The translations under genes and the position numbers were made by a program. Below the pieces are notes generated by a model. That model was not told where the DNA came from. It saw nothing but the letters and a program-made list of their open reading frames with translations, and made no database searches. From Planctomycetota bacterium (lineage in GTDB: Bacteria > Planctomycetota > JAJSAM01), in the NCBI GenBank assembly GCA_024274785.1, contig JAJSAM010000036.1:14748-78747 (forward strand): a DNA stretch of 64,000 nt, in the 5' to 3' direction. Shown here one piece after another: positions 18,146 through 34,128 of this stretch; position 1 is the first letter of the stretch, and each line of letters starts with the position of its first letter.

Positions 18146-18177
18146 CCGATTTCTCCTGGCTTAAATTCCCTGGCCCA

Positions 18178-19905
18178 CTAACCGACCGTGGTCGTGGGGT
18201 CGTACATCTCGATGTATCCGCACGGGCACTGCTCCGCGCACTTGTCACAACCCTTGCAGAATTCGAGCTTGACCCGGTAGGGCTCGCCCGCCTGCAGGGG
18301 CTTGATGATGGCGCTGTCCTGGCAGTAGCTCCAGCACGTGCCGCAGTCGAAACACGAACCGCAGCTCATGCAACGCATCGCTTCCCTGACAGCCTGTTCT
18401 TCGGTGAGTCCGGACTCGATTTCGCTCTCCGGATCATTGAAACGATCCTCGACGGAGAGGTGACCGCACTGCTCGCGCAGGAGCTTCTCGTAGTAGGTCA
18501 GGACCATCCGGTCGGCCTTGATGACGGGCCGGTCTTCGGCCTGCTCGAGTTCGATACCGCGCAATCTGGCGTGGATCGTGTCCGCGGCGAGGCGCCCCTG
18601 GAAGATGGCGATGGTCACCAGGCCGAGGTTCACGTCGTCTCCCCCGGAGAAGACCATGCCTTCCTTCGTTTCTCCGCCCTCGTCGACCTTGATCCAGTCG
18701 CGCCCCTCCACCAGGCTCTCGAAGCCATCGAATTCGGGGGCCTGGCTGATCGCGGCGACGATGGTGTCGGCGAAGATGGTGAACTCCTCCCCCTCGACCG
18801 GTACGGGGCGACGGCGGCCGGATTCGTCCGGTTCGCCGAGTTCGCACACCTGGCACCGCATGCCGGCGCACTTGCCGTCTTCGGTGAGGATCTCGATCGG
18901 CGCCGCGAGGAACTTGAGGTCGACACCCTCTTCCTCCGCTCCGAGGATCTCCTCATCGATGGCGGGCATCTCGTCGCGGGTGCGGCGGTAGACGATGGTC
19001 ACCTTCGCGCCGTGGCGACGGGACATCCGGGCCGCGTCGATGGCGGTATCGCCACCACCGATGACCAGCACACGCTTGCCGACATCGACCTCCACACCGC
19101 TGTTCACGGCGTTGAGGAACGAGGTGCCGGTCCACATCCCAGCCGCATCCTCGCCGGGAATGCCGAGCAACCGACCCTGATGGGCGCCGATGCCGACGAA
19201 CACGGCCTGGTTCCGCTCCCGCAACTCGGCGAGGGAGATGTCCTTCCCCACGACCGTGTTGAGCTTCAGCGTGACACCGAGGTCGACGATCCGCTGGACC
19301 TCGTGATCGATGACCTCCCGGGGAAGGCGGTAAGCCGGGATGCCATAGCGCAGCATTCCACCCGCCTTCGGGAAGGCTTCGTAGATGGTCACCGCGTAGC
19401 CCTTCAGGGCGAGGTGATATGCAGTGCTGAGCCCGGCGGGACCGGAACCGATCACCGCGACGGACTCGTCATACGTCTTCTCCGGGGCCTTGAACTCGAG
19501 CCCGTGCTCGATGGCCCAGTCCCCCACGAACCGCTCGACGTTGTTGATACTCGCCGGAGCGTCCACTTCGTTCCGGTTGCACTCCGTCTCGCAGGGGTGA
19601 GGACAGACCCGGCCGCAGACCGCCGGCAGGGGATTCTTCGCCGTCAGCATCCGGAAAACTTCGTTCCAGGTCTCCCTGCGGTCGACACCCAGCTTCTCGC
19701 CGGCGGCGATCTTCGTCAGGATGCCACGAATGTCCGTCCCCTGGGGGCAGCCCATCCGGCACGGCGGGTTCTTCTCGACATATCTGGGCCTGCGGGGAGA
19801 CTGCTCGGTGGCCGAGCCGCTGGAACCGGAGCTTCTCAGGCTCCCCAGCTTCTTCTTTTTCTTTCCGCTGCTTCTCTTGATGCCCACGTGGGCCTCACTT
19901 TCCAT
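18178..19905 (-). CDS. dsrL: DsrL Fe-S flavoprotein, NADP(H)-type (DsrL-2)
   Basis: RPRYVEKNPPCRMGCP, CGRVCPHPCE, GSGPAG, GGGDTAID..YRR, C-terminal CMSCGSCFDCGTC / CKGCDKCAEQCP; 575 aa; inside the dsr operon. Confidence 0.9.
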   Translation of the reverse strand: MESEAHVGIKRSSGKKKKKLGSLRSSGSSGSATEQSPRRPRYVEKNPPCRMGCPQGTDIRGILTKIAAGEKLGVDRRETWNEVFRMLTAKNPLPAVCGRVCPHPCETECNRNEVDAPASINNVERFVGDWAIEHGLEFKAPEKTYDESVAVIGSGPAGLSTAYHLALKGYAVTIYEAFPKAGGMLRYGIPAYRLPREVIDHEVQRIVDLGVTLKLNTVVGKDISLAELRERNQAVFVGIGAHQGRLLGIPGEDAAGMWTGTSFLNAVNSGVEVDVGKRVLVIGGGDTAIDAARMSRRHGAKVTIVYRRTRDEMPAIDEEILGAEEEGVDLKFLAAPIEILTEDGKCAGMRCQVCELGEPDESGRRRPVPVEGEEFTIFADTIVAAISQAPEFDGFESLVEGRDWIKVDEGGETKEGMVFSGGDDVNLGLVTIAIFQGRLAADTIHARLRGIELEQAEDRPVIKADRMVLTYYEKLLREQCGHLSVEDRFNDPESEIESGLTEEQAVREAMRCMSCGSCFDCGTCWSYCQDSAIIKPLQAGEPYRVKLEFCKGCDKCAEQCPCGYIEMYDPTTTVG

Positions 19906-19946
19906 ATCAGGGCCGTGCGTGGCCGGCCGTCACTCTTCCGAGTCGC

Positions 19947-20390
19947 TCACCAGCCGTATGGATACAGGTTGCGCTTGATGTCCTCGAGGCTCTCCAGCAT
20001 CCGGTGATGCTTCTCCTCGTCGGCGAGGAGGTAGGACAGGAAGTAACGGATCACCGGGTGACCGGCGGAACGGCGCGCATCGTGTGCCATGGAGATCGTG
20101 GCCTGCTCGAGCTGGTCATGCTCGTCGAGCTTGTCCCAGATCAGAGCGACATCTTCCGGCGACAGCGTGAAGGCCTGCTTCGTCAGACCGTCGATCATGA
20201 GCTGCTGCACGCGGCGATGCTGGCCGGAGTCCTGCTTGATGATCTCGAGGATCTCCTTCAGCACCGGATTGTCCGTGGTGCCCTGGAGCTCGGTGAGGAA
20301 AGTGATGCCTTCGACCTCGAGAGCCTGCCAGTTCGCCAGCAGCGCCACGAGGTCTTCCATCTGTTCCTTCTGCGTCTTCTTCTCCGTCAT
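19947..20390 (-). CDS. Uncharacterised ferritin-like four-helix protein in the dsr operon
   Basis: Two helical-hairpin halves, WQALE..QDSGQH and DQLE..ADEEKH; SD GGGAGAG; start abuts the dsrN stop. Confidence 0.7.
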   Translation of the reverse strand: MTEKKTQKEQMEDLVALLANWQALEVEGITFLTELQGTTDNPVLKEILEIIKQDSGQHRRVQQLMIDGLTKQAFTLSPEDVALIWDKLDEHDQLEQATISMAHDARRSAGHPVIRYFLSYLLADEEKHHRMLESLEDIKRNLYPYGW

Positions 20391-20391
20391 G

Positions 20392-21858
20392 TCACTCTCC
20401 CGCTTGATGACCATGCGACGTTACGAAGTTCGTCCCGGGTGCGTTAGCACTCACGGCCCGGCGCTCAGTGGCGACTTTCCGGGCGCGGCGAACCAGGGCC
20501 GAAGCCCAGGCCGGCGTTCCGAGCGCGTGCAGGTGAAGCCAGGTGGCGAGGACGTTTCGCTTCGTGATGCCGTCCCGGCCATCCTGACCTCCGGCTCCGC
20601 GCCGGACCGTGAAAGCGAATTGCGACGGCAGGGTTCCCCCGACGATCTTCGAATAGTGAAACTCGTGTCCACGGAGCACGGTCCCCTCCGGAAAGAAGGG
20701 GTTCTCCCGATCCACCACCATCTCCGCGTAGCCGTGCCCCCGCGGCCGGGTGTGCACTTCGATATCGAGGTCGAAGACGCCGCAGAGTTCGGTACTTTCG
20801 CCCTCGAAGCGAACCGAGCGGCAGAGGTAGATCAGCCCACCACATTCCGCATAGACCGGTAAGCCGGCCCGTGCCTCCCGGCGGACGGATCGCATCAACC
20901 CCTGGTTGCCGGACAAGGCCCCGGCATGAGTCTCCGGAAAGCCCCCGCCCAGATACAGGAGGTCCACGTCCGGCAGCCTCGTATCCGAAAGAGAGGAGAT
21001 CGGAACCAGTTCCGCCCCGGCGTCCTCGAGAGCCTCGAGATTCTCGGGGTAATAGAAGGTGAACGCCGAGTCCCGAAACACGCCGATGCGGACCGGAGTC
21101 CCGGAGCGCACCGCCGGATGGTCGGGGGGGAGTTCCGGGATTGCGCCGGAAGTACGGGCCAGGTCGATCAGGTGGTCGAGGTCCACGTGATCCCGGGCGA
21201 TCACGCCCAGTCTCCGAACCACCTCTCCCATGCGCCGGTGCTCCTCCGGGGGCACCAGGCCGAGATGACGGTCCGGTAGCGGGTCCGTGCCCGAAAGTCG
21301 CGGGATCGCACCCACCACGGGGACTCCGGTCTCTTCTTCGATGGCTCTCGTGACTTCCTGCGCGTGCCGGCTCCCCCCCACCCGATTCGCGATGACGCCG
21401 GCGAGGGCGGTCTCCGGACTGAGCGCCTTGACTCCAGCCACGATGGCCGCAGCCGTCCGGGTTACCTTCGTCACGTCGATCACGAGAATCACGGGAGCCT
21501 TGATGAGCCGGGAGAGCGCAGCAGTGCTGTGTCCCTCGAACCCATCCAGAATTCCCCGGTTTCCCTCGACGATCGCGATGTCGGTCCCGGCCGAGTTCCG
21601 GCGTACGGAGCGGAGCACCTCCTCCTCCCCCATGATCCAGGTATCCAGATTGCGGGCGGGGCGGTCGGTCGCGCGGCTGAGCCAGGAGGCGTCGATGTAG
21701 TCCGGTCCCTTCTTGAAGGCGGACACAACGAGCCCGGCCTGGCGCCACGCCGTGGCGAGACCGAGGGTGACAAGGGTCTTGCCCGAGTCTCCCCCGGTAC
21801 CCGCCACCACGAGCTTTCCGGGTGCATCCGACATCCGCAGATCGGCGCTAGCCCGCAT
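20392..21858 (-). CDS. dsrN: DsrN, siroheme a-amide synthase (cobyrinate a,c-diamide synthase family)
   Basis: GGDSGKT, FKKGPDYID, RNLD, GGGFPE, YAECGG, GHEFHYS; follows dsrD. Confidence 0.93.
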   Translation of the reverse strand: MRASADLRMSDAPGKLVVAGTGGDSGKTLVTLGLATAWRQAGLVVSAFKKGPDYIDASWLSRATDRPARNLDTWIMGEEEVLRSVRRNSAGTDIAIVEGNRGILDGFEGHSTAALSRLIKAPVILVIDVTKVTRTAAAIVAGVKALSPETALAGVIANRVGGSRHAQEVTRAIEEETGVPVVGAIPRLSGTDPLPDRHLGLVPPEEHRRMGEVVRRLGVIARDHVDLDHLIDLARTSGAIPELPPDHPAVRSGTPVRIGVFRDSAFTFYYPENLEALEDAGAELVPISSLSDTRLPDVDLLYLGGGFPETHAGALSGNQGLMRSVRREARAGLPVYAECGGLIYLCRSVRFEGESTELCGVFDLDIEVHTRPRGHGYAEMVVDRENPFFPEGTVLRGHEFHYSKIVGGTLPSQFAFTVRRGAGGQDGRDGITKRNVLATWLHLHALGTPAWASALVRRARKVATERRAVSANAPGTNFVTSHGHQAGE

Positions 21859-21861
21859 TTC

Positions 21862-21963
21862 TCACCAGTTCACACGATCTGAGGGGCGGTCGCGGCGCAT
21901 CGCGGCGTCAGACCTCCTCCGGGATGGGAAGGCGTCGCGTCGTCGGTCTTCCAAGCGCAGCAT
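21862..21963 (-). CDS. Putative 33-aa Arg-rich small ORF upstream of dsrN
   Basis: GAGGAGG SD 9 nt before the ATG; MLRLEDRRRDAFPSRRRSDAAMRRDRPSDRVNW*; stop 3 nt before the dsrN ATG. Confidence 0.3.
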   Translation of the reverse strand: MLRLEDRRRDAFPSRRRSDAAMRRDRPSDRVNW

Positions 21964-22079
21964 CCGCGCCGGCCTCCTCAGATACACCCTGTTACCGCTG
22001 CAACCCGCCAGAACGCGCCCCCCTTCCGGTAGTTTCCACAGTTGCAGAAACGAGGCGCGCCCTCATGAGAACAGCGGGC

Positions 22080-22337
22080 CTAGTTCTCCGCGCCCTCCTT
22101 GTGCGGCATTTCGATGAAAGAGCCACCGAAATAGGTGTAGACGCAGCGCTCGGTCTCGATGAGCAGCTTGATGGCCTTCTTACAGGCCTTCTTGTCCACC
22201 CGGTCCTCGCCGAACAACTCGATCATCATCTTGACGAGGTCGCCGGGCTTCAGTTTCTTCAGACCCTGAGCGGCAGCCACCTGCTTCTCCATGGCGTCTG
22301 CGATTTCTTCCGTCGTAGCCGAGTCCGCCATAACCAT
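22080..22337 (-). CDS. dsrD: DsrD
   Basis: KKLKPGDL, CVYTYFGGSFIEMP winged-helix signature; directly after dsrB; start may be 22331. Confidence 0.92.
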   Translation of the reverse strand: MVMADSATTEEIADAMEKQVAAAQGLKKLKPGDLVKMMIELFGEDRVDKKACKKAIKLLIETERCVYTYFGGSFIEMPHKEGAEN

Positions 22338-22340
22338 CTC

Positions 22341-23423
22341 CTAGTGCACGATCTGGGTCGACCGCTTGAAAGTCAGCCCGGCGTGCTTGAAGTCGTCGAT
22401 GTGTTCCTTCTGGAACTCGATTCCCGCCATCTTGAAGAACTTGGGCCAGGTGATGCGGTTGATCCACTCACCCATGCGCTCGAAGGGCTTCGCGTTCGCG
22501 GCCCAGAGCTCGACGAGCTTGAGAATCACATCCGTTACTTCCGGCCACCGCGGCGGGTTGTTCGGAATGTACGGTATGGCGAGCTTGCTGAACATCGGCT
22601 CGGATCGAGCATTGCTGACCTTGCCGCCCACCCAGATCGACACGCCGTCGTTCTCGGGGTCGTTCAGAGGCATCGACGGACATACCGTGAAGCAGTTCGC
22701 GCAGTACATGCACTGCTCTTCGATGACCTCGACGGAGGGCGTACCGTCCACCTGAGTCGGCCGGATGGCCGCGGTCGGACAGGCCGAAACCACGTTCGGG
22801 ATCTCACAGATCTTGGCGACCTGAGTGTGATCCGTGCGCGGGGCCTTGCGGTGGATACCGAGAATGGCGATGTCCGAGCAGTGGACCGCGCCACACATGT
22901 TCAGGCAGCAGGCCAGCGCGATGCGCAGCTTGCCGGGGAGCTTCTTCTCGCCGTTGAAGTAGGGGTGCACCACGTCCATGACCGCCTTGACAACGCCGGA
23001 GGCGTCCGTCGCGGCAGAGTGGCAGTGGACCCATCCCTGGGTGTGAACGATGCTGGTGATCGCCGCCCCGATGCCACCGACCGACACCCCCATCGCGGCC
23101 AGATCGGCGATAAGGGGGTCGATGTTCGCATCATAGGTGAGCAGGAACTCGATGTTGTGACGACTGGTGAAGCGGAGGTAGCCGTCGCAGTACTTGTCCG
23201 CGAGGTCCGCGAACTGGCGCAGCCGGTAGATGGAAACGAGACGGGCGCCGGCGGCACGAACCGTGTAGAGCTTGTCGCCCGTCGCACCGACGTGAACCAT
23301 GACACCCGGCTTCAGGACCTCGTGGTACTTCCAGGTCCCGTAGTTCTCCTTGCAGATCGGGGGCATCAGCTTGTCGTGATGAGGGGGGCCGATGTCCGTG
23401 ACCCGCTTGACTTTTTCCGCCAT
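22341..23423 (-). CDS. dsrB: Dissimilatory sulfite reductase beta subunit
   Basis: [37 protein letters not shown]. Confidence 0.98.
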
Positions 23424-23464
23424 GCTCAAATCTCCTTTGGGATCGTTTTTGATGGAGGTTGGCC

Positions 23465-24658
23465 CTACTCGTCCTCGTCCTCGTCCTCGGACAGGTCGTA
23501 GAACACGTACGGGTTTTCGCGTGGGAAGGCGACCATCTCGGGCTCCGGGTCGAGCCCGATCGCCTCGAGGAAGTTACCCATTCCAACGCGCTGAATGAAT
23601 TCACCCACGCGCTCACGGTTCTTGCCTTCCTCACTCCAGACATCCCAGATCGCCTCGACGAGGTCCTTGAGATCCTCGTAGGGCTCTTCCGGCTTCCAGA
23701 ACGGGACCAGGACGGAAGAAAGCAGCGCACCCTCGACAATCGGCGCCTTGGATCCGATCAGAATGGTGGCGCCCCGATCCTTCCCGGGTGCGAGGGCCTT
23801 CGGCATGGCGTTGATGCAGTGCATGCACTTGCGGCAGTACTCGTCATCGATCTCGAGTTTCTCACCGTCCCACTTCATACACTTCGCGGGGCAGTTCAGA
23901 ACCACGTCGTTGAAAATGTCCAGGCCGTTGTCGGCGTACTTCCTGACCTCGGCATCGTCCTTCACGATCTCGTCCCGCCAGGTGCCGATAATCGACAAGT
24001 CGGAGCGGGCAATGGCGGCCACACAGTCGTTCGGGCAGCCGGACATCTTGAACTTCCACTTGTACGGGAACATCGGCCGGTGCAGCTCGTCCTGGTACGA
24101 CATCGTCAGGTCGTAGGTCAGACCGAGGGTGTCGTAGCAGGCCCACTCACAGCGGGCGGGGCCGACGCAGCAGCTGGGGGTCCGCACGTCCGAGCCGGAT
24201 CCACCGAGGTCGAAGCCCTTTTCGGTCAGCTTCTTGAAAGTCGGCTCCAGCTCCGGAGTGCTCGTCCCGAGGAGAACGATGTCCCCCGTCGAGCCGTGCA
24301 TGTTGGTGAGCCCGGAGCCGTGCTCCTCCCAGATGTCGCAGATGTCACGCAGAGCCTTGCTGGTGTAGAACCAGCCCGCGGGCTGATTGACACGCAGCGT
24401 GTGGAAGTGGCTGACGCCGGGGAAGTCATCGGGGAGGTCGGAGTAGCGCCCGATGACGCCTCCGCCATAACCGAGGACACCCACGATTCCACCGTGCTTC
24501 CAGTGTCCGATTCGTTCCCGGTACGAGCGTTCGAGCTGTCCCAGGAGGTCCCTGGCCTCTTCGTGATGTTCTGCGGCTTGCTTGATCTCCGTCACGAAGC
24601 TGGGCCACGGTCCCTTCTCAAGTTCGTCAAGAAGGGGAGTTTCGGGTAGTTCCGCCAT
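23465..24658 (-). CDS. dsrA: Dissimilatory sulfite reductase alpha subunit
   Basis: [61 protein letters not shown]. Confidence 0.98.
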
Positions 24659-24837: not shown

Positions 24838-24853
24838 CGCAAACCGTACGCCA
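24838..24853 (-). promoter_or_regulatory. sigma54 (-24/-12) promoter of the dsr operon
   Basis: Minus strand TGGCGTACGGTTTGCG: GG-N10-GC with TT before GC; about 180 bp upstream of dsrA. Confidence 0.75.
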
Positions 24854-25058
24854 ATCCGGACCGGTGAAGAGGGGACTCACAACCATCTACCAGAGAAGGA
24901 CTTACAGAGCAGCAAGGACTGTTCGATCGCTCGCTCGGAGCCACCCGGCGGTGTGGATGGAGCTTACGGCCAGGAAGCGCCCGGCCGAAGAGGAACGCCA
25001 TAACCATCGCAAGTACAACAATTTACACCGACACGCCCCACCACCCGCACTCACCCGT

Positions 25059-25074
25059 GTTACATCGTTGTAAC
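25059..25074. promoter_or_regulatory. Candidate enhancer (UAS) palindrome, dsr side
   Basis: Perfect palindrome GTTAC-ATCGTT-GTAAC, 206 bp from the -24 element. Confidence 0.65.
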
Positions 25075-25169: not shown

Positions 25170-25191
25170 TGTTACGAATGCGCTACGGTTC
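25170..25191. promoter_or_regulatory. Second candidate UAS box, dsr side
   Basis: TGTTAC-GAATG-CGCTACGGTTC; matches 38367-38388 at 17 of 22 positions. Confidence 0.6.
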
Positions 25192-25298: not shown

Positions 25299-26753
25299 TT
25301 GGCAATGCTCAAAGCACGGTCTGCCAGGTATCAACTCGTGATCAGCGCCATCATCCTGATCGGTGGCGGATTCGCGGGGATGATGGCGATCCGCTGGTGG
25401 GACCGTTTCCTGGTCGGCGAGGCCCTCGAGGAGCGCCAGGTCCTGGTCCGCAGCATCGCCATCGGCGCGGAGGCCATTCTCTCCCGTCACGGACCCGAGG
25501 ATGCTTCCGCCCTCGCCGACATTCTGGAACGGATCAGGCAGGAGTCTGAATTCGACGCGGTTCGGCTCGTGATCCTGTCGCCGGATGGGCAGGTCATCTC
25601 CGGCACCGGCACCTCCGATCCTGAGGACCGGATCCACTCCCGCCTTGAGCCCGGGGTCCGGATCATCGACGAGGAAGAGGGCCCGGTGGCGGGCATTCTG
25701 GTCATCGAGCCATTGGCCGGAGACGGATCGAAAGACGGTTTCCTGGTCGTGGAGTTCGGGATGTCCACCGTGAAGCGGGGCACAGTCCGCGCACTCATGA
25801 TCATCGTGATGCTGGTGACCGGCGGGGTACTGATCACCACGTTTTTCGTCGGCTATCTCATCCGGCGCTGGGTGAATCCCATCGAGAGACTCTCCCGCAC
25901 CATGAGCGAGGTGCAGGACGGAAACCTCGATGTCGAGCTGGACGAGAGCAGAACCGACGAGATCGGGGATCTGGGCCGCCACTTCAACGAGATGCTGAAG
26001 AGTATCCGCGCGGCGCGGGGCCAGTCGCTGAACCTGGCCCGCAAGCAGGCAAATGTCGAGAAGTTCGCGGCCCTCGGCCGTCTGTCCGCCGGCGTCGCTC
26101 ACGAGATCAACAACCCGGTGGGCGGCATCATCACCTGCATCGAAACCATGCGAAAGCTCGAGCAGGGTTCGGAGCGGTTCGAGGAGTACCTCGACCTGGT
26201 GCACTCCGGCCTCGAGCGCATCGGGAAGATCGTCATGCAGCTCCTCAGGTTCGCCCGCCAGCCGGAAGGAGAGCGGGCCGAACTGAACCTGAACGCCATC
26301 CTGAAAGAAGTCATGGTCCTCTCGCTCTTCCATAACCGGGACGAAGAGGTCGAGGTCGTGCTCAGGTTCGGAGAGATTCCGATCATCCGGGCCGCCCCGG
26401 ACCTGCTGAACCAGATCTTCCTGAACCTGGTGCTGAACGCGCTGCAGGAGATGCCGAACGGCGGCACGCTCACCGTCTCCACCTGGGCGGAAGGGAATCA
26501 CGTGGCCGCGTCCTTCGCGGACACCGGGCCGGGGATCGCGGATGAAAACCTGGAGCGGATCTTCGAGCCGTTCTTCACCACCAAGGACGTCGGGGTCGGC
26601 ACGGGCCTCGGGCTCTCGGTGGCCCTTGGAATCATCGAGGCTCACGGGGGTACGATCTCCGTAACCAACCGCGAGCAGGGCGGCGCCTGCTTCACGGTGA
26701 CTCTGCCCATCGACGCTTCGGAGCCCGTCAGGATGAAAGCCGCGGAGAGATAG
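25299..26753 (+). CDS. Membrane sensor histidine kinase (2 TM, extracytoplasmic domain, HAMP, HisKA, HATPase)
   Basis: Two TM helices; [27 protein letters not shown]; VAHEINNPV; GTGLGLS; start may be ATG 25305. Confidence 0.93.
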
Positions 26754-26755
26754 GA

Positions 26756-28120
26756 ATGAAGCGCAAGAAGACCATTCGGTTGCTCGTCATCGAAGACGAA
26801 CCCATCCTCAGGAGGACCGTCACGGATCGGCTGACCGACGAGGGTTACGCGGTTCGGGCGGAGAAGGACGGAACCTCCGGGCTCAATGCCTGGCACGAGC
26901 AGCCGTTCGACCTGATCCTCCTCGACCTGGTCATGCCGGGTATCGGCGGCATGAAGGTGCTCGAGGAGATCAGGGCCGAGGACGCGGATGTTCCGATCAT
27001 CATCATGAGCGCGCACGGCACCGTGGAGACCGCGGTAGAGGCCATGAAGCTCGGCTCGAGCGAGTTCATCACCAAACCCTTCAGTCTGGAGGAACTCAGC
27101 AATCGCATCCAGACGTTCGCCGACCTCCTCAGACTGAAACAGGAGAACCTGCACCTCAAATCTCAACTGGCGGAGCGGCCGATCATCGGCAACAGCCGCG
27201 CCATCCAGGACGTGATGGAGCAGATCGGGATCGTCGCCGGCAACCACGCCACCGTCCTCATCACGGGAGAGAGCGGCACCGGAAAGGAACTCGTCGCACA
27301 GGCGATCCACGCCCAGAGCCCCCACGCCGGGGGAACCTTCGTCAAGGTGAGTTGCCCGTCTCTGCCCGAGACCCTGCTCGAAGCGGAACTCTTCGGCCAC
27401 GAGAAAGGCGCGTTTACCGGCGCCTATCAGCGAAAGGTCGGCCGGTTCGAACTCGCCGACGAGGGGACCATCTTCCTCGATGAAATCGGGGACATTTCAC
27501 AACTCGTGCAGGTGAAGCTGCTGCGCGTTCTCCAGGAGCATTCCTTCGAACGTGTGGGCGGCACGGCGACCATCACCCCTCACACGCGCGTGGTCTGCGC
27601 CACCCGGTTCGACCTGAAGGAGATGGTGGACCAGGGCCGGTTCCGGGAAGACCTCTTCTACCGCCTGAACGTGGTCACCATTGAGGTGCCGCCCCTCGCG
27701 AAGCGCCCCGACGACATCCCGCTGCTCGTCGAGCACTTCATGACCCGCGCGAACTTCAACATGGGGAAGCAGGTCACCCAGGTGGCACCGTCCTGCATGA
27801 AGCTCCTGATGGCTTACCCCTGGCCCGGCAATATCCGCCAGTTGGAAAACACCATCGAACGCGCGGTGATGTTCAGTCAGACGAAGGTGATCACCATCGC
27901 CGATCTCTGTTCGGAACTCCACCACTACCGGGATGAGGTGAAGGACCTCTGTCCGGATGAGTTCGACATCCACTGCCAGGTCCGCCAGACGGAAAGGCAG
28001 TGCATCATCAAGGCCCTGCAGCGGACGGGTGGGAACCGGTCGAGGGCGGCGGACCTGCTGGGCATCTCCCGGAAGCGGCTTTGGGAGAAGATCAAGGAGC
28101 TTCATGTGTTGGTGGATTGA
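26756..28120 (+). CDS. NtrC-family sigma54-dependent response regulator (REC-AAA+-HTH)
   Basis: LLDLVMPG; GESGTGKE; GAFTGA; FLDEIG; WPGNIRQL; GNRSRAADLLGISRKRL. Confidence 0.95.
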   Translation: MKRKKTIRLLVIEDEPILRRTVTDRLTDEGYAVRAEKDGTSGLNAWHEQPFDLILLDLVMPGIGGMKVLEEIRAEDADVPIIIMSAHGTVETAVEAMKLGSSEFITKPFSLEELSNRIQTFADLLRLKQENLHLKSQLAERPIIGNSRAIQDVMEQIGIVAGNHATVLITGESGTGKELVAQAIHAQSPHAGGTFVKVSCPSLPETLLEAELFGHEKGAFTGAYQRKVGRFELADEGTIFLDEIGDISQLVQVKLLRVLQEHSFERVGGTATITPHTRVVCATRFDLKEMVDQGRFREDLFYRLNVVTIEVPPLAKRPDDIPLLVEHFMTRANFNMGKQVTQVAPSCMKLLMAYPWPGNIRQLENTIERAVMFSQTKVITIADLCSELHHYRDEVKDLCPDEFDIHCQVRQTERQCIIKALQRTGGNRSRAADLLGISRKRLWEKIKELHVLVD

Positions 28121-28369: not shown

Positions 28370-29494
28370 TCACTGCGGAGCCCCGGCCTTCTCCCGTCCG
28401 GTGTAGTGGGCGTGCACGAGCGCCACCGAGCGGTAGACCAGATGCGCGATCTTCGACCACGGCGCGTAGCCCAGCAGACAGAAGACGCAGACCAGGTGGA
28501 TGAAGTAGACGCCGAAAGCCACCGTCTGGATGTCCAGCATGCGGAACGCTTCGACCATGACGCCGGTGACGCCCGTCAGGAGCAGCGAATACATGAAGAA
28601 CCAGTCGTACCAGGTGCCCTTCGTCTGACGCTCGGGGCGGGTCAGGCGATACTTCACCAGGAGGATCGTGCCGATCACCAGGCCGAGAGCGCCGAGGTTC
28701 AGCATCAGCTTCAGCGGGTGGAAGAAGGGCAGCGGCAGGTCGAGCATCCCGAACATGAACCCGATGCCCACGATCGAACCGCCGATGAAGATCAGCGAGA
28801 AACCGTAGAACATCAACATGTGGCCGAGCGCCCGCGACTCGCCGGCTTCACACTGCCTGAACTTCGCGTGCGAGACAATGTCGCTTGCGGCCGCTGCTAC
28901 CGCGCTGATGAAGTTCGCGCCCGCCGGGGCGGGATGCGCCTTCATCAGTGACTTCCAGTAGTTGAATGCACCGATCGCAAAGATCAGGCTGCCGACCATG
29001 GTCATGACGCCGAGCAGCGGTTCCAGAATGCCCGGCGGAAAGATCCCATCGAAGTAGCTGGTCTCGCCGTGCCTGTCCCCGAAGAGCAGGAAGATCAGCG
29101 TCCAGAGCACCACCGGCACCGCGATCAACACCGGCAGGTACTTCGGACTCTCGAGGAGCTTCTGCACGCCCCCCATCGGAGTGTACTCCCGGATCGCCTC
29201 TTTGCGGACGGCGGCGAGCACGTCACCCGGACGGGCGCCGCGCGGACACAGGATCGAGCAGTCGGTACAACCGAAGCAGAGCCAGATGTCCGGGTCGTTG
29301 ATCAACTCCTCTTTCTGTCCCCACTGGGCCAGGATCATCTCCTTGCGGGGGAAAGGACGGTCCTTCGGGGAGAGTTCGCAAGCCACGGAGCAGTTCGCGC
29401 ACTGCATGCACTGCTTCACCGTATCCCCGCCGGACTGAACGATGCGCCGAACGAAGTCGAGGTCGGATCGGATCACCTTCCGGTCTTCCGCCAT
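28370..29494 (-). CDS. qmoC: QmoC, membrane heme b / Fe-S subunit
   Basis: CMQCANCSVAC, IWLCFGCTDCSILCPRGA, GHMLMFYGF, PWSKIAHLVYR. Confidence 0.95.
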   Translation of the reverse strand: MAEDRKVIRSDLDFVRRIVQSGGDTVKQCMQCANCSVACELSPKDRPFPRKEMILAQWGQKEELINDPDIWLCFGCTDCSILCPRGARPGDVLAAVRKEAIREYTPMGGVQKLLESPKYLPVLIAVPVVLWTLIFLLFGDRHGETSYFDGIFPPGILEPLLGVMTMVGSLIFAIGAFNYWKSLMKAHPAPAGANFISAVAAAASDIVSHAKFRQCEAGESRALGHMLMFYGFSLIFIGGSIVGIGFMFGMLDLPLPFFHPLKLMLNLGALGLVIGTILLVKYRLTRPERQTKGTWYDWFFMYSLLLTGVTGVMVEAFRMLDIQTVAFGVYFIHLVCVFCLLGYAPWSKIAHLVYRSVALVHAHYTGREKAGAPQ

Positions 29495-29535
29495 GGTCGT
29501 CTCCTGAGCCTGCAATTCTCACCGGGGAGCGCAGG

Positions 29536-31773
29536 CTAAAAGCCCTTGAAGGGGTTCATGCCGATCTCTTCGATCTCCCCGGCGAACTCGTTGATGATCT
29601 CCGGAAGCCGGTCGAATTCGTCGATGGAGAGCTCTTCGATGCGCACGCGCTCCGTTTCGAGTGCAAGCTGCGTCAGCTTCTCCTTGATGTTGCTGCTGCG
29701 CGTGCCCATCAACTCGCTGCCCTTGATGTAGTGGCACTGATAGTCGTCGCCGGACTTGCAGCCGATGAGGAGGATGCCGTCGAAACCGGACGACAGCGCG
29801 TCGGCGATCCAGACGACGTTCACCGATCCGAGACAGCGCACCGGGATCACCCGGATCCACGGCGACATCCGCGTCTTGAGGGCTGCGGCCCGATCAAAGG
29901 CGGGATACGCGTCGTTTTCGCAGAAGAACGCGAGCAGCCGCGGCTTCTCATCGAACTCGTCGGGGATATCGATCGCCTTCAGCATCGAAGAGACGATGTC
30001 AATCGAGTAGTCCTTGAAACTGACGATCCGCTCCGGGCAGGCGCCGAGACAGATACCGCAACGGCGGCAGCGGGTGGGCATCAGTTCCGGCGTGCCCCTG
30101 GCGTCCTCGTTCAACGTTCCAAAGGGGCACTCCTCCGTGCACCGCTTGCACTGGGTGCAACGCTGCAGGAAGAAGTCCGGGAAGGACTGATCGCCCCACC
30201 GCGGGTGGACCGAGTAGCCCTCCTTCAACAGGTTCGTGGCCTGGATGGTCTTCAGCACCGCGCCCTGCGCGTCTTCCTCGGCGGTGAGGGTGTCGCTCGG
30301 AGCCCGCATGCAGCCGGCGGCGTAGATACCGGTGCGCCTCGTCTCGAACGGGAAGCAGATGAAATGGGAGTCCGGGAAGCCGTACTTCAGCGCCGGAAGG
30401 TCCGGTCCCTGGCGATAGTTCAGGTTCAGGATCTCGGTGCCTTCATGATGGCCGAACTCTTCGACGGTCTGGTTGGCCATCTCGACCTGCACCGGAGAAT
30501 CGTTCTTCGCGATGATCGCCCTGGCTTCGCCTACTTTCCGGATGGCTTCGCCGTCGGCGGCGTCCGGGACCATGCCGGTGGCGAGCACCACCAGGTCCGC
30601 GGGCACTTCGATCTTCTCGCCGAGAAGAGTGTTCTCGGCCAGGACCTTGAGACCACCGTTCACCGTAACGCCGGTGACATCACCCTTGTTGAAGAAGACG
30701 CCCTCGTCCTCCTGAACGCGCTTATAGAACTCCTCCCACTGGGCGGGAGCGCGCATGTCCTTGTAGAGGATGATCGCCTTCGCGTCCGGGTCCATTTCCC
30801 GAACGTAGAGCGCCTGCTTGAGGGAAACCCGACAGCAGACCGCGGAGCAATACGGCAGGTGCTCCTGGTCACGAGAGCCGGCGCACTGGATGAAAACGAC
30901 CTCTCGTGGCGGCTTGCCGTCGGAGGGCCTGAGGATGGCCTCGTTCTTCGCCATCTCCTCGAACTCAACGTTGGTGATGACGTCCGGGGAGAGGCCGTAG
31001 CCCAGGTGCTCGAGCTTCGTGGCATCATAGGGCTTCCAGCCGGTGGCCTGCACGACCGCGCCCACGCGGAATGCCACTTCGCCCGAGGGGGTTTCGAGCT
31101 TCACGTCGAACTGTCCGGGCTGGCCGTCGATCGAGGTGATCTTCGTTCCGGTGTGGACCGTGATCAGATCGGATGACCTCACCGTCTCGATGAGCCTGAT
31201 GATCACCGGCTCCTCGAGTTCCCGGTACGGGGGCTTCGTCGGGAACTGCTTGTGGTTCTTGAGCAACCGGCCGCCGATCTCGTCGGCCTTCTCCACCAGG
31301 ATGACCTCGCGACCCGCCGCCGCCGCTTCCGCCGCCGCGGTCAGGCCGGTGCAGCCGCCGCCCACCACCAGGATACCGTCGGCGATCTCCTCGTCGAACG
31401 GCTGGGGTACGTCGTACTTCTGCGCCTGGACCATGCCCATGCGCATGTAGTCGTTGGCCAGCATCTGCGTGTCTTCCTCGCCGGCGGGCTGGCACCAGGC
31501 CACGCCTTCGCGGAGGCTGACCCGGGACACGAACCGGTCGGGAATGGTGAAGACGTCGCATTTCTCGCGGTGGCTGCACGCGCAGAGGACGGCCTTGCCG
31601 CCGCCGGCGAGTGCCGCCGCGAGAAGAGCCACACCCTCTTCGCCGCAAAGGGCGGGGTGGATCCTCGGCTTTACCTGGTACTCCGATTGGACCAGCTCAC
31701 CGAGCGCATCAACGTCGATGGCGTCGCCGATGCCGCAACCCGAGCAGATGAAAACGTGGATGTCGTCGCTCAT
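29536..31773 (-). CDS. qmoB: QmoB (HdrA-like FAD/Fe-S protein with C-terminal MvhD/FlpD domain)
   Basis: VFICSGCGIG, CAGSRD..HLPYCSAVCC, CTQCKRCTEECP, FFCENDAYPA, RCLGS, CHYIKGS; start at 31773 after SD. Confidence 0.95.
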   Translation of the reverse strand: MSDDIHVFICSGCGIGDAIDVDALGELVQSEYQVKPRIHPALCGEEGVALLAAALAGGGKAVLCACSHREKCDVFTIPDRFVSRVSLREGVAWCQPAGEEDTQMLANDYMRMGMVQAQKYDVPQPFDEEIADGILVVGGGCTGLTAAAEAAAAGREVILVEKADEIGGRLLKNHKQFPTKPPYRELEEPVIIRLIETVRSSDLITVHTGTKITSIDGQPGQFDVKLETPSGEVAFRVGAVVQATGWKPYDATKLEHLGYGLSPDVITNVEFEEMAKNEAILRPSDGKPPREVVFIQCAGSRDQEHLPYCSAVCCRVSLKQALYVREMDPDAKAIILYKDMRAPAQWEEFYKRVQEDEGVFFNKGDVTGVTVNGGLKVLAENTLLGEKIEVPADLVVLATGMVPDAADGEAIRKVGEARAIIAKNDSPVQVEMANQTVEEFGHHEGTEILNLNYRQGPDLPALKYGFPDSHFICFPFETRRTGIYAAGCMRAPSDTLTAEEDAQGAVLKTIQATNLLKEGYSVHPRWGDQSFPDFFLQRCTQCKRCTEECPFGTLNEDARGTPELMPTRCRRCGICLGACPERIVSFKDYSIDIVSSMLKAIDIPDEFDEKPRLLAFFCENDAYPAFDRAAALKTRMSPWIRVIPVRCLGSVNVVWIADALSSGFDGILLIGCKSGDDYQCHYIKGSELMGTRSSNIKEKLTQLALETERVRIEELSIDEFDRLPEIINEFAGEIEEIGMNPFKGF

Positions 31774-31777
31774 GGGA

Positions 31778-33055
31778 TCAACCTCGCCTCGCAATCTGGT
31801 GGGCCTTGAGGACGGCACCGGTGGCGTCCTTCACGCAAGCGGAGACTTCCGCGGGGCGCTTGGCGCACCCGGTCGCGAAAACTCCGGGAGCTGCGGAAGA
31901 AGAGTTGCCGACCATGAAGCCCTGCTCGTCGGTCAGCCACCCAGATGGGAACCCCGCGTCCTTCGCCTCGGGGTCGAGGCCCACCGCCAGCACCGCCAGG
32001 TCGGCGGTGAACTCGACTTTCTGACCGGAGAGCGTGTCCTCGGCGTGGAGGATCACCGCGCCATCGGCCCCCTCGGTGATCTTCGCCACGCGCCCCTTCA
32101 CGAACGTCGCGCGCTCGTTGTTCTCGAGTTCCTGGAGGAAGTCCTCCAGCCGGCCCGGGGCGCGGCGATCGATGTAGAAATGCCGGACCGTCGCATCCTC
32201 GCTGGCCTGCAGCACGTAGTTCGCCTGTTTGAAGCTCGCCAGACAACAGACCGCGGAGCAGTGCGCGAGGTGCAATTCGTCCCGGGAACCGGCGCAGTGC
32301 ACAAAGGCCACCACCTTCGGCGCCTGGTGGTCGCTCGGGCGCAGGATCTTGCCCCCGGTGGGACCATCGACCGCCGCCAGGCGCTCCATCTCCACGTTCG
32401 TAATGACGTTCTTGAACTTCCCGTAGCCCAGTTCTTCGAGCTTGTTCGCGTCGTAGGGCTTCCACCCGGTGGCGACGATCAGGGAGGAGACGGTGATGGT
32501 CTCCGTTTCGACCTTCCCGCCGAAGTCGATCGCGTCGACCTTGCAGACGTCACGGCACTTTCCGCAGGAGTCACGGTCACAGTGATCGAAGTCGATCGCG
32601 TGGCGGGCCGGGAACGCCGCGCCGTAGGGCAGGTAGATGGCCTTCGTCTCATCCATACCGTAGTTGAAGTCGTTCGGCCGCTCCTTCGGGCACGCCTCGA
32701 CACACTCGCCGCAGTTGGTGCAGTTGGCGTTCACTCCGCGGGGTGTCTTCTCGAGCTCGACCTCGAACTTGCCGGGACCGCCCGCAACACCCACCACCTC
32801 GGTCTGGGTGAGGAGATGGACCCTGGGGGTGGTCCGAAGTCTCTTGAGATGGATCTCCACGCCACAGGTCGGCGGGCAGAGCTTCGGGAAGTACTTGTTC
32901 AGTTGCACGACTCGCCCGCCGAGATAGGCGTTTCGCTCCACGAGGTACACCTCGTGGCCCGCCTCCGACGCCTCGACCGCGGCGGAAAGACCGGAGATCC
33001 CTCCGCCGATGACGAGAATGGGCGCGCCGACGTTGTCCGTCGTCGTAGCTGTCAC
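31778..33055 (-). CDS. qmoA: QmoA (HdrA-like)
   Basis: ILVIGGGISG, KYFPKLCPPTCG, CAGSRDE..CSAVCCLAS. Confidence 0.95.
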   Translation of the reverse strand: MTATTTDNVGAPILVIGGGISGLSAAVEASEAGHEVYLVERNAYLGGRVVQLNKYFPKLCPPTCGVEIHLKRLRTTPRVHLLTQTEVVGVAGGPGKFEVELEKTPRGVNANCTNCGECVEACPKERPNDFNYGMDETKAIYLPYGAAFPARHAIDFDHCDRDSCGKCRDVCKVDAIDFGGKVETETITVSSLIVATGWKPYDANKLEELGYGKFKNVITNVEMERLAAVDGPTGGKILRPSDHQAPKVVAFVHCAGSRDELHLAHCSAVCCLASFKQANYVLQASEDATVRHFYIDRRAPGRLEDFLQELENNERATFVKGRVAKITEGADGAVILHAEDTLSGQKVEFTADLAVLAVGLDPEAKDAGFPSGWLTDEQGFMVGNSSSAAPGVFATGCAKRPAEVSACVKDATGAVLKAHQIARRG

Positions 33056-33903
33056 TGTGCAGGCTCCTGGACCGCGTCGTTGTTGATGGCCTCAGCCTTG
33101 ATGGTCTCTGCCTTCAACTCCATGGTCGGCTTCCCGAACAGGCTGAACCGGAGGAACCGGAAGCCGAACTCCATGAGTGCTTCGTCGTCAGACTGGAGCC
33201 GCTCCTGCTCATCCCCGGACACCTCGAATCGTTCGAGAAAAGTGCTCGAGAAGATGAAGCGGCGGAAGGTGTCGAGCTCGTAGGTCCCCATGTAGAACAT
33301 CTGCATCTGCTGGGGAGTGAGCTCCTTTTCGGTCGTGAGGTAGTCGTCGACCGCGAGTTGACGGTACTTCTCGCCCCACTCGTCGTACTCCTCGATGCCC
33401 TGCCCCGAGATCCACTCCCCCACCTTCCGGCTGGTGGATTCGGCGAAGCCCCGGCAACCATCCTCTTCCATCAGGAACCAGAACTCCTCCTCACGACCTT
33501 CCGCTTCCCCGGCCTTGGCGTAACCGAGGGGATACATGCGGCAGGCCCAGGGACGATCTTCGTAGACCTGGCAACCGCCCTTCTCGAGATCCAGGAACGG
33601 GCAGGATTTCTGCTCGTTGTCCCCCATGCGGATCAAGGGAGCCGGCAGCCTCTGCTCCTTCGCGAACGGCAGGACCGTCAGTTGATCGAGGAACTCCTCG
33701 GAAGTGAGGCCCAGGCGATTCTTCAGGCGGAGGACGTCATAGGGGGTGAGGACGATGTTCACATCGCCACAGCAGTCTCCGAAACAGGAGACGCCGGGAT
33801 GGCAGCCAAATGCGAAGCTATCCTCCCGTGTGAGCCGAGGGGCCTCGTCGAGGACCTTCTTTTCGAACTCGGACCTCGCCTTGACGGCTTCTTCGTCGGA
33901 CAT
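33052..33903 (-). CDS. YkgJ-family cysteine-cluster protein
   Basis: FGCHPGVSCFGDCC..LTPYD; CPFL..GCQVYEDRPWACRMYP; SD GGAGG before ATG 33903. Confidence 0.85.
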   Translation of the reverse strand: MSDEEAVKARSEFEKKVLDEAPRLTREDSFAFGCHPGVSCFGDCCGDVNIVLTPYDVLRLKNRLGLTSEEFLDQLTVLPFAKEQRLPAPLIRMGDNEQKSCPFLDLEKGGCQVYEDRPWACRMYPLGYAKAGEAEGREEEFWFLMEEDGCRGFAESTSRKVGEWISGQGIEEYDEWGEKYRQLAVDDYLTTEKELTPQQMQMFYMGTYELDTFRRFIFSSTFLERFEVSGDEQERLQSDDEALMEFGFRFLRFSLFGKPTMELKAETIKAEAINNDAVQEPAQ

Positions 33904-34088
33904 CGGATCAGACCTCCTGGCCGGATCGAGGCCGGCCGGTGAGCCGGGGGACAGGAGGGATTCCGCCCATCGAGTGGACATCGGCAGGGCACGACGGAGT
34001 CCGCGAACGGCGGCCCTGTCATGCGACCACCCGACAAGTCGGGCCGTGTCCCCCCCACCGTGCTCCCGCAAAGGACCCTGGTGGAAAG

Positions 34089-34117
34089 CGACCCTCCGGC
34101 GAAACGCCGGAGGGTCG
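34089..34117 (-). terminator. 13-bp stem-loop just after aprA
   Basis: CGACCCTCCGGCG-AAA-CGCCGGAGGGTCG, followed by CTTTCC on the minus strand. Confidence 0.7.
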
Positions 34118-34128
34118 ATGATGATCGG

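Follow-up and report, generated by a model that had tools for sequence, protein, structure and literature searches.

A candidate NtrC-family two-component switch for the dsr and sat-apr-qmo operons of one uncultured clade

How the core genes of dissimilatory sulfur reduction are switched on is the question raised by this locus, in which a two-component system lies between a dsr and a sat-apr-qmo gene set on a 64-kb stretch of DNA (the window). In the literature searched we found no account of dsrAB, sat or apr being controlled by sigma-54 or by a two-component system. Nor do the searchable papers describe a transcriptional switch dedicated to the core dsr, apr and sat genes, and a review of 950 dsrAB genomes is silent on regulators. 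The initial annotation had proposed the pair as a candidate switch for sulfate respiration, and synteny, conserved boxes and sigma-54 promoters before both dsrA and sat support this reading, in which the response regulator would act at both sites. Judged from the sequence, the pair is probably a two-component system of the NtrC family that is found in one uncultured clade and dedicated there to the genes of dissimilatory sulfur reduction, activating the sigma-54 promoters in front of both operons, dsr and sat-apr-qmo.

The histidine kinase (HK) ORF occupies positions 25299-26753 of the plus strand, with a TTG start at 25299 and the probable start at the ATG at 25305. Its stop codon is separated by 2 nt from the response regulator (RR) gene (26756-28120, plus strand), which encodes an NtrC-family response regulator/sigma-54 enhancer-binding protein. 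The pair is divergent from dsrA (23465-24658, minus strand) and convergent with qmoC. Both DsrA and DsrB scored above the NCBIfam equivalog cut-offs (TIGR02064, 590.8 vs 392.85 bits; TIGR02066, 482.8 vs 341.5). The first proposed target operon (8963..24658, minus strand), annotated with Pfam and NCBIfam, runs from dsrA through dsrB, an 85-aa winged-helix ORF, a dsrN-like gene, a 155-aa ORF, a dsrL-like gene (18178-19905) and dsrC, followed by sirohaem synthesis genes, a dsrT-like gene, dsrM, dsrK and dsrO-like and dsrP-like genes. All of these are co-directional with short gaps, and their order is repeated in four metagenome loci (L081, L082, L083 and L085). The second proposed target operon (28370..37770, minus strand; Pfam) consists of sat, aprB, aprA, a gene for a CxxCxxCC protein, qmoA, qmoB and qmoC; it converges on the RR gene from 37770 down to 28370, and the same order was found in L081, L085, L087 and L088. 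The genes of the first operon would form a single transcript, and the extent of both operons is likewise a prediction. Scans with Rfam and for terminators returned nothing relevant. Elsewhere the window encodes a REC-only protein (4650-5045).

That the pathway runs in the direction of sulfate respiration is suggested by gene content only. The regulatory wiring could be right and the pathway label wrong, with the dsr/apr/sat set running sulfur disproportionation or oxidation, which we regard as unlikely. A DsrL-like gene is present, as that alternative would have it, and the 85-aa ORF that occupies the place of DsrD shows no recognisable signature of that protein: it gave no Pfam match at E up to 0.01, the profile of its family did not match DsrD among solved structures, and its single-sequence model, with generic winged-helix matches, would fit DsrD without being specific to it. 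However, DsrA scored highest against the reductive enzymes of Archaeoglobus (557 bits) and Desulfovibrio (510 bits); the 64 kb carry qmoABC, dsrMK(O)P, a dsrT-like gene and dsrC, with no dsrEFH seen, and DsrL-2 together with DsrD is taken as reductive (PMC10591310).

The RR was annotated as an intact REC-AAA+(GAFTGA)-HTH activator divergent from dsrA, and our domain analysis bears this out in both anatomy and gene orientation. Pfam placed the receiver domain (REC) at residues 10-119 (PF00072, 106.8 bits), Sigma54_activat at 143-310 (PF00158, 227 bits), AAA_lid_14 at 316-393 and a Fis-type HTH_8 at 409-449 (PF02954, 58.4 bits). The phospho-acceptor D57 lies in LILLDLVMPG, and the AAA+ domain carries Walker A (GESGTGKE, 171), GAFTGA (218) and Walker B (FLDEIG, 240). 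The RR thus has the receiver, the AAA+ domain with GAFTGA and the HTH of NtrC-family enhancer-binding response regulators, and the target -24/-12 promoters with upstream dyad sites that belong to this family are present at the sequence level. Among solved structures it is nearest to Aquifex NtrC4 and NtrC1, while it scored below the NCBIfam equivalog cut-offs for AtoC (464.6 vs 714), NtrC (408.6 vs 558.6) and ZraR (392.9 vs 760). RR identity across orthologous loci is 70-87%, and within the HTH-region stretch GNRSRAADLLGISRKRLWEKI the core LLGISRKRLWEK is near-invariant among 10 orthologues.

The HK contains HAMP (187-238), HisKA (259-323) and HATPase_c (367-472) domains. All of the H, N, G1, F and G2 boxes of a HisKA-type transmembrane kinase were found (AHEINNP 267, LNLVLNA 375, DTGPGI 408, FEPFFTTK 422 and GTGLGLS 434), and it scored below the equivalog cut-offs for AtoS (219 vs 646) and ZraS (175 vs 479). 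Its orthologue family (P0002-P0035) spans 321-815 bits, after which scores drop to 226. In the numbering of its 482-aa database entry (P0001, starting at the ATG at 25305), hydrophobic segments at about residues 10-30 and 162-186 flank a loop of about 131 aa. The initial annotation had described this as an unassigned sensor of about 130 aa on a membrane kinase; the membrane-bracketed loop stands, as does its lack of a Pfam match, Cache profiles included (residues 1-185, even at E up to 1), but "unassigned" no longer holds, since a PDC/sCache fold is predicted for the periplasmic domain. The AlphaFold2 model of the loop, of medium confidence (pLDDT 74.7), places a long N-terminal helix ahead of a sheet of five strands, the whole lying between the two transmembrane helices. 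The structure comparison against Cache and CHASE folds that had been suggested as a check gave the sensor domains of WalK, DctB, Tlp3, KinD, CitA and DcuS as the top Foldseek matches in the PDB, with probabilities of 0.99-1.00, TM-scores of 0.44-0.69 and 10-18% sequence identity. In addition, 4 of 20 HK orthologues matched the Pfam family sCache_3_2 (best E-value 1e-6). The domain diverges fast, and no conserved polar pocket residues stood out across the family. Because it is so poorly conserved and is missing from several orthologues, it is doubtful that the HK sensor reads one conserved ligand.

The pair keeps its place in most related loci. Among 12 metagenome loci outside the window with an orthologous HK, the HK and RR genes are divergent from dsrA in 11, at HK identities of 45-72%, and qmo-apr(-sat) lies on the other side wherever the contig reaches far enough. 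The orthologues are therefore not mostly away from dsr/apr loci, the arrangement that had been named as speaking against a role in sulfur respiration. The exception is L084, where the pair stands beside a DsrC-fusion gene and dsrMK-like genes instead of dsrAB, and where the boxes described below are absent nearby. In two loci, L082 and L086, a gene for a PhnD/AioX-like binding protein directly precedes the HK gene; against solved structures these proteins matched ArrX (1.3e-8) and AioX-like proteins (5e-3), and they matched the NCBIfam TtrS model weakly (5.2e-5 and 6.1e-4). No PhnD-like binding-protein gene was found in the window. Genes of 430-450 aa follow the RR in some loci, encoding a secreted HExxH protein in L082 and L086 and an unrelated one in L085; they are not conserved partners and have no homologue in the window.

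A metagenome scan anchored on Sat yielded 80 loci, in which clade members were only L087, L088 and L089; around the other 77 Sat genes (Sat at most 74% identical) the best RR-like match within 10 kb was 42% identical, a result that bears on sat neighbourhoods and not on those of dsrA elsewhere. A scan of reference genomes found no orthologue among species-representative genomes, a negative that carries no information because its HK patterns were generic, and the matches obtained were generic relatives of the kinase core, at most 42% identical, with neither a sensor match nor dsr/apr neighbours. The HK-RR pair is confined to one uncultured clade, two members of which carry the NCBI label Planctomycetota, and DsrL-type dsr clusters do not in general come with it.

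We then compared the spacer between dsrA and the HK gene across loci. Footprinting of this spacer revealed four conserved islands: the dsrA ribosome site, a -24/-12 element, and two boxes (Box 1 and Box 2). The element, TTGGCGTACGGTTTGC (24839..24854, minus strand), has the form TTGGC-N6-TTTGC, with GG at 24852-24851 and GC at 24840-24839, and faces dsrA. It recurs in 12 of 12 dsrA-linked loci at 170-240 nt before the dsrA ATG, and scored 28.6 with a position weight matrix, compared with 14.6 for the best other site. The dsrA transcript would start near 24827, with a leader of about 170 nt. A second element, TTGGCGCACCGTTTGC (37889..37904, minus strand; matrix score 26.3), faces sat; its 5' T (37904) is 134 nt before the sat ATG, and the sat transcript is expected to start near 37877. 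It is kept upstream of sat in L087 and L088, where Sat is 92% and 91% identical, respectively. Exact TTGGC-N6-TTTGC has two matches in the 64 kb, these two promoters only, and occurs once per locus in L081-L083 and L085-L088 and not at all in L084. The family promoter pattern found both window sites with an N6 spacer and neither with N7.

It might be objected that TTGGC-N6-TTTGC is no promoter and that dsr and sat are transcribed by a housekeeping sigma factor, the synteny being incidental. The canonical sigma-54 consensus at two mismatches occurs at chance level in the window and misses the dsrA site. No sigma-70-like promoter was found in 24500-28500, and as the lineage's housekeeping promoters may differ from the consensus scanned, this null is weak evidence against the objection. 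Nevertheless, 12 dsrA loci and 3 sat loci have kept the element, its GG and GC canonically spaced, on the correct strand and at the correct position, and in six aligned loci its GG, GC and TTTGC columns are invariant in a spacer with a mean column identity of only 49%. We consider this objection highly improbable and treat both elements as sigma-54 type promoters. Facing the HK gene, no conserved -24/-12 site was found in the spacer, where TGGCAC at 25247 is wrongly spaced; the autoregulation that the initial annotation had allowed for therefore gains no support, and its sigma-54 form was dropped.

Candidate upstream activating boxes had been placed by the initial annotation at 25059 and 25170 in the shared intergenic region; we found them at 25059 and 25171, conserved in position and sequence across loci. 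Box 1 (25059..25074) is the perfect palindrome GTTACATCGTTGTAAC, GTTAC-N6-GTAAC, a proposed UAS centred 215 bp upstream of the dsrA promoter, measured to the -24 GG. It is present in 12/12 dsrA-linked loci with 0-1 mismatch, at a distance from the promoter of 214-218 bp in seven loci, 195-204 in three, 160 in one and 103 in one. Box 2 (25171..25186), the asymmetric variant GTTACGAATGCGCTAC (GTTAC-N6-GCTAC), lies 112 bp from Box 1 in the window; it is kept in 8 of the 12 dsrA-linked loci, degenerate (three mismatches) in L086 and L168, and absent from L083 and L169. The spacing between the boxes takes two values only, 101-102 or 112 bp, one helical turn apart.

The same architecture is duplicated upstream of sat, in a region without a divergent gene that carries the promoter and both box types. 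The sat-proximal box (38111..38126; GTCAC-N6-GTAAC read towards sat) is centred 217 bp upstream of the sat promoter, again measured to the -24 GG, compared with 215 bp for Box 1, and its counterpart in L088 is GCTAC-N6-GTAAC at 228 bp. The sat-distal box (38368..38383; GTAGC-N6-GTAAC read towards sat) corresponds in type and orientation to Box 2, and its 16-mer GTAGCGTGTGTGTAAC is identical in L088. All four box sites fall in the spacers upstream of dsrA and sat. The within-window counts against chance are only suggestive and, taken by themselves, not significant: GTTAC-N6-GTAAC at up to one mismatch occurs twice in the 64 kb, a count reached by 3 of 100 shuffles, and GTTAC-N6-GCTAC occurs exactly twice, with none added at up to one mismatch, a count reached by 15 of 100 shuffles. 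It is their conservation across 12 loci that makes the boxes more than chance.

A palindrome with 5-N6-5 geometry suits a dimeric HTH protein, and the near-invariant core of the RR HTH goes with the conserved GTAAC half-site, which we counted in favour of pairing the RR with the boxes. The RR could still activate the promoters while the boxes belong to another regulator, such as a CRP/FNR-type dimer, or serve the promoter of the HK operon. The 5-N6-5 geometry is found in CRP/FNR-family sites as well, Box 2 lies 45-190 bp before the start of the HK or binding-protein gene in the loci compared, and the enhancer distance is long: enhancers of the NtrC class typically lie 80-150 bp from the promoter, shorter than the 215 bp seen here, and two enhancer sites about 100 bp apart are unusual for the class. 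Against this arrangement stands the recurrence of the boxes before sat, where there is no divergent gene and the proximal box is equally far from the sigma-54 promoter, and the dsrA-HK spacer keeps no other conserved island fit for an enhancer. We accordingly give this arrangement little credence and regard the boxes as the candidate enhancers of the RR.

Equally improbable in our estimation is that the sigma-54 promoters are real and obey a different activator, the neighbouring pair regulating something else or only itself. The window does encode a second enhancer-binding protein, a REC-less AAA+-HTH_8 protein (47307-48359), and the L084 pair is not beside dsrAB. Nothing, however, ties the 47307-48359 protein to dsr; in 11 of 12 loci, with the HK 45-72% identical, the RR still adjoins the region with promoter and boxes, and its HTH and the boxes are conserved over the same loci. 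We infer that this RR, rather than another activator, binds the boxes, and that the HK passes phosphate to it. No rpoN lies within the 64-kb window; its presence in the genome is presumed because two enhancer-binding-protein genes (the RR gene and 47307-48359) are encoded.

The observations are the anatomy of the genes and their domains, the conservation of synteny, promoters and boxes, and the duplicated architecture at two operons; the favoured mechanism would join them as follows. Upon its cue the membrane kinase would autophosphorylate on the HisKA histidine and hand the phosphate to D57 of the RR, whose dimers would bind GTTAC-N6-GTAAC-type boxes about 215 and about 315-330 bp upstream of the two sigma-54 promoters and assemble the active AAA+ ring. 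This ring would then, via DNA looping and its GAFTGA loops, drive open complexes at PdsrA, which would serve dsrAB...C-sirohaem-dsrTMKOP, and at Psat, which would serve sat-aprBA-qmoABC. Since sigma-54 promoters stay silent unless an activator is at work, the pathway as a whole would be strictly inducible.

We tentatively extend this to a possibility of lesser weight, namely that the clade's whole dsr and sat-apr-qmo pathway is a strictly enhancer-dependent sigma-54 regulon, switched by a dedicated sensor of a periplasmic sulfur oxyanion (sulfite, thiosulfate or sulfate), either via the sCache domain or, in some lineages, via the AioX-like binding protein. If true, such an oxyanion-sensing system would be the first case of a master regulator that controls dissimilatory sulfate reduction by sensing a substrate, and the organisms would be facultative, inducible sulfate reducers. 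The locus, with its single regulator pair, its two promoters and a 16-bp site that is well defined, offers an on/off model testable in vitro for an uncultured lineage. The model predicts coordinated switching of both operons in metatranscriptomes, with starts near 24827 and 37877; the combination of RR, boxes and promoter could be used as a genomic marker of inducible sulfate/sulfite reduction in metagenomes, and the sensor domain and the L082/L086 binding protein provide handles on the environmental cue that turns on sulfur respiration.

The architecture of the HK-RR pair is already known, and its regulon is one for which we found no report. TtrS/TtrR is likewise a two-component system dedicated to the respiration of a sulfur oxyanion (tetrathionate), but TtrS has its PhnD-like periplasmic domain in the kinase, whereas here the binding protein is a separate gene in some loci only; to our knowledge, TtrR is not a sigma-54 activator. 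The same REC-AAA+(GAFTGA)-HTH_8 architecture of the RR is found in NtrB/NtrC, AtoS/AtoC, ZraS/ZraR and Aquifex NtrC1/NtrC4, among which AtoS and ZraS are closest to the window kinase core, and NtrC-family systems likewise use palindromic enhancers upstream of -24/-12 promoters. The present system differs in its own sensor and proposed regulon, in an enhancer about 215 bp from the promoter, and in reaching no equivalog cut-off. The predicted fold of the HK sensor is like the PAS/PDC (sCache) domains of WalK/YycG, DctB, CitA and DcuS, although identity to these is 10-18% and the window sensor lacks a Pfam match and is absent in several orthologues. The model sulfate reducer Desulfovibrio vulgaris Hildenborough also has many enhancer-binding proteins, some of them belonging to two-component systems (PMC4641369). 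Because the text on its sigma-54 regulome never mentions dsr, sat, aps or qmo genes, sigma-54 control of core sulfate-reduction genes is not part of the known D. vulgaris picture (PMC4641369).

A close parallel appears to be AioXSR, whose components AioX, AioS and AioR work through the RpoN promoter of aioBA (PMC6011840). In AioXSR, and also in ArrXSR/ArxXSR, a kinase and a sigma-54 activator RR adjoin a respiratory operon with an RpoN promoter (PMC6011840, PMC5908839), as would be the case here. The AioXSR regulatory operon itself is not sigma-54 driven (PMC6011840, PMC5908839), a likeness that the HK-RR genes seem to share. L082 and L086 also have the PhnD-like binding-protein gene before the HK gene; the window differs in lacking one, and its kinase has its own sCache-like domain, which some orthologues do not. 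The targets differ as well, being arsenite oxidase for AioXSR (or arsenate reductase for ArrXSR/ArxXSR) and, as proposed here, dsr and sat-apr-qmo. By analogy, control by the HK-RR pair would thus resemble the control of arsenite oxidase by AioXSR.

The kinase and regulator genes lie in a window of 64% G+C, between two minus-strand gene blocks and flanked by a dissimilatory sulfur gene set that is complete by domain and family profiles. The membrane sensor histidine kinase (HK; 25299/25305-26753, plus strand) and the NtrC-family response regulator (RR; 26756-28120, plus), whose start is 2 nt past the HK stop, are transcribed divergently from dsrA and converge on qmoC. The dsr block runs from 24658 down to 8963 and, in the gene order read from the profiles, comprises dsrA and dsrB (both above NCBIfam equivalog cut-offs), a conserved 85-aa ORF at the DsrD position (22080-22337), a dsrN-like amidase gene, a 155-aa ORF (19947-20414), a DsrL-like flavoprotein gene, dsrC, two fused sirohaem-synthesis genes (14574-17742), an RsbRD_N (dsrT-like) gene and, at its end, dsrM, dsrK, dsrO-like and dsrP-like genes. 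The genes sat, aprB and aprA, a gene for a CxxCxxCC protein and qmoABC follow each other from 37770 down to 28370. We infer the extents of the dsr and sat-apr-qmo operons from this layout. One sirohaem gene fuses a precorrin-2 dehydrogenase-like domain with a glutamyl-tRNA reductase domain and the other a uroporphyrin methylase with HemD, an arrangement within the dsr string that recurs in the related loci L081, L082, L083 and L085. The 155-aa ORF is conserved at ~150 aa in L081, L083, L085, L168 and L169, not in L082, and gave faint rubrerythrin and PrlF matches alone, under cut-offs. The CxxCxxCC protein (PF03692; 33052-34071) keeps its position between aprA and qmoA across the clade and also in distant loci from the Sat-anchored search, e.g. 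L093, L124, L147 and L161 (38-46% identical).

Profiles, hydrophobic segments and motif positions bore out the domain description of both proteins in the initial annotation. Two hydrophobic segments of the HK flank a ~131-aa loop, followed by HAMP, HisKA and HATPase_c domains with all kinase boxes present, and the RR joins a D57-bearing REC domain to an AAA+ domain (Walker A, Walker B and GAFTGA motifs), a lid and a Fis-type HTH. Neither protein reached a named equivalog among the NCBIfam models, the nearest of which (AtoS/AtoC, ZraS/ZraR and NtrC) were all far under cut-offs. Cysteines C399 and C407 in the linker leading into the HTH (CPxxxFDxxC, window ~27950-27976) were invariant in all 10 orthologous RRs, as were C200, C281 and C347. 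By analogy with OrpR, it is conceivable that a redox or metal signal acts straight on the RR via these cysteines.

The protein search gave the HK family a sharp boundary, with ~34 clusters at 321-815 bits and then a fall to 226. We compared the DNA around 12 members, chosen mainly for long contigs and subclade spread rather than gene content; every related locus came from metagenomes. The pair was divergent from dsrA in 11 of the 12 loci (L081, L082, L083, L085, L086 and L167-L172; in L172, whose edge cuts the gene short, only the DsrA N-terminus is encoded). Thus, orthologues are not found mostly away from dsr/apr, the distribution that the initial annotation had named as speaking against its candidate master switch of sulfate respiration. 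In loci with enough sequence, the dsr order was that of the window, DsrL-like gene included, and downstream of the RR came qmo-apr in L081 and L085 and qmoABC-sat in L082. The exception is L084, where the pair adjoins a DsrC-fusion, dsrMK-like genes and another kinase. Identity across loci was 70-87% for the RR versus 45-65% for the far less conserved HK. Two HK-family members carry the NCBI label Planctomycetota, which is provisional, and the regulon so far appears confined to one uncultured clade. The giant repeat proteins of the window, one of 2353 aa with Kelch and Big_5 repeats (51262-58323, minus) and a HEAT-repeat protein of 1150 aa (40644-44096, plus), fit this label of the relatives.

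Alignment of the dsrA-HK spacers (mean column identity 49%) revealed four clear conserved islands, the first being the dsrA ribosome-binding site. The second, TTGGC-N6-TTTGC(G/C) on the dsrA strand (24839-24854), has GG and GC at the canonical sigma-54 spacing and was present in all 12 dsrA-linked loci, 170-240 nt ahead of the ATG. The initial annotation had also placed two candidate enhancer boxes in this spacer. Box 1 (25059-25074; GTTAC-N6-GTAAC) was retained with 0-1 mismatch throughout (12/12), and Box 2 (25171-25186; GTTAC-N6-GCTAC) in eight of the 12 loci, being degenerate (3 mismatches) in L086 and L168 and absent from the spacers of L083 and L169. The distance between Box 1 and the -24 GG is 214-218 bp in seven loci, 195-204 bp in three, and 160 and 103 bp in one each, and the two boxes are 101-102 or 112 bp apart, values differing by one helical turn. 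No conserved -24/-12 site facing the HK was found in the alignment, and a scan of 24500-28500 gave no sigma-70-like promoter. Transcripts are predicted to start at the candidate sigma-54 promoters.

The design upstream of sat in the window is the same. A -24/-12 promoter facing sat (TTGGCGCACCGTTTGC, 37889-37904) is accompanied by a proximal box, GTCAC-N6-GTAAC, centred 217 bp upstream, and farther upstream by a distal box, GTAGC-N6-GTAAC, oriented to the promoter as Box 2 is at dsrA. Because there is no divergent gene upstream of sat, these boxes cannot be attributed to a kinase promoter. The promoter was conserved in L087 and L088, two close relatives with sat upstream sequence; in L088 the distal 16-mer is identical to that of the window, and the proximal box GCTAC-N6-GTAAC lies 102 bp from it and 228 bp from the promoter. 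The separation of 257 bp in the window (38127-38367 between the boxes) versus 102 bp in L088 suggests a ~155-bp insertion in the window genome. The exact promoter pattern occurred in the 64-kb window only at dsrA and sat, on the correct strand, once per locus in L081-L083 and L085-L088, and nowhere in L084. A matrix built from 13 instances scored the two window sites, both among those instances, at 28.6 and 26.3 as self-scores, versus 14.6 for the next best, and the specificity of the pattern is high. The element might be no promoter, or the boxes might belong to another regulator; both readings are disfavoured by the duplication of the architecture at sat and the joint conservation of RR, HTH and sites.

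A second sigma-54 activator, lacking a receiver domain, is encoded at 47307-48359 (plus; 350 aa, AAA+, lid and HTH_8). About 3 kb upstream of it, a near-canonical -24/-12 site (TGGCACGCTCTTCGCA, 44376-44391, plus) lies 58 nt ahead of two ORFs (44434-44991 and 44972-45841) without family match, and activator and site may form a separate small sigma-54 regulon. That this or another activator serves the dsrA and sat promoters is disfavoured on the same grounds of duplication and joint conservation. The RR quite probably drives both promoters through the boxes.

An AlphaFold2 model of HK residues 1-186 (15 orthologues, mean pLDDT 74.7) showed a long helix extending TM1 and a further helix, followed by five strands and TM2. 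Its best solved-structure matches were the extracytoplasmic PAS/PDC (sCache) domains of WalK, DctB, Tlp3, KinD, CitA and DcuS, so the sensor, left unassigned in the initial annotation, is modelled as a Cache-type fold. Pfam sCache_3_2 matched 4/20 HK-family members, not the window HK. Sensor domains are 24-30% identical between subclades versus 43-51% for whole proteins, with few conserved polar positions, and the domain is fast-evolving. Several orthologues lack it (verified in L083, L084 and L085, where no in-frame upstream extension could supply it). Directly ahead of the HK in L082 (9068-9997) and L086 (3409-4308), and absent from the window, is a periplasmic binding-protein gene of the PhnD/PtxB/HtxB group, with ArrX and AioX-like matches among solved structures and a weak match to the TtrS model. 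The same two loci encode a secreted HExxH protein (431-452 aa) directly past the RR, also absent from the window. The input side is therefore variable by sequence comparison, and conservation lies with the kinase core, the RR together with its HTH, and the DNA sites.

A DsrA closest to reductive enzymes and a gene set with qmo, dsrMK(O)P and dsrC, and no dsrEFH seen in the 64-kb window, point to a reductive pathway rather than disproportionation or oxidation, without settling it. The direction is less certain because the ORF at the DsrD position is not shown to be DsrD: its mean column identity is 77% over 11 loci, it had no DsrD match in Pfam or in a profile search of solved structures, and its single-sequence model is a generic winged helix (pLDDT 69.8). 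A second membrane redox module at 5-6498 (plus) encodes HdrD/DsrK-like CCG, NarI-like and Fer4_11 proteins and an NrfD-cytochrome c3/c7 fusion; genes for a REC-only protein (4650-5045) and then for a PAS kinase (5047-6498) come next. L083 and L084 also have a REC-only gene beside dsrK-/dsrM-like genes just past the RR.

At the level of sequence, to which all of the evidence belongs, a standard NtrC-type relay is the best-supported reading of the pair. The HK would phosphorylate D57 of the RR, which would occupy the boxes, assemble, loop the DNA and activate sigma-54 RNA polymerase at the dsrA and sat promoters; rpoN was not seen in the 64-kb window of the 88.6-kb contig. Parts and mechanism are of a well-known kind, and the regulon would be new. 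Literature searches found no description of sigma-54 and two-component control of core sulfate-reduction genes; dsr, sat, aps and qmo go unmentioned in the D. vulgaris sigma-54 regulome paper (PMC4641369), as do regulators in a 950-genome review of dsrAB organisms. The closest described design is AioXSR, whose periplasmic binding protein, kinase and sigma-54 activator turn on the neighbouring arsenite oxidase operon at an RpoN promoter, the regulatory operon itself being constitutive (PMC6011840; PMC5908839). If the analogy extends to the input, a sulfur oxyanion may be the cue, and for kinases lacking the sensor a signal from the membrane or the redox state is just as conceivable.
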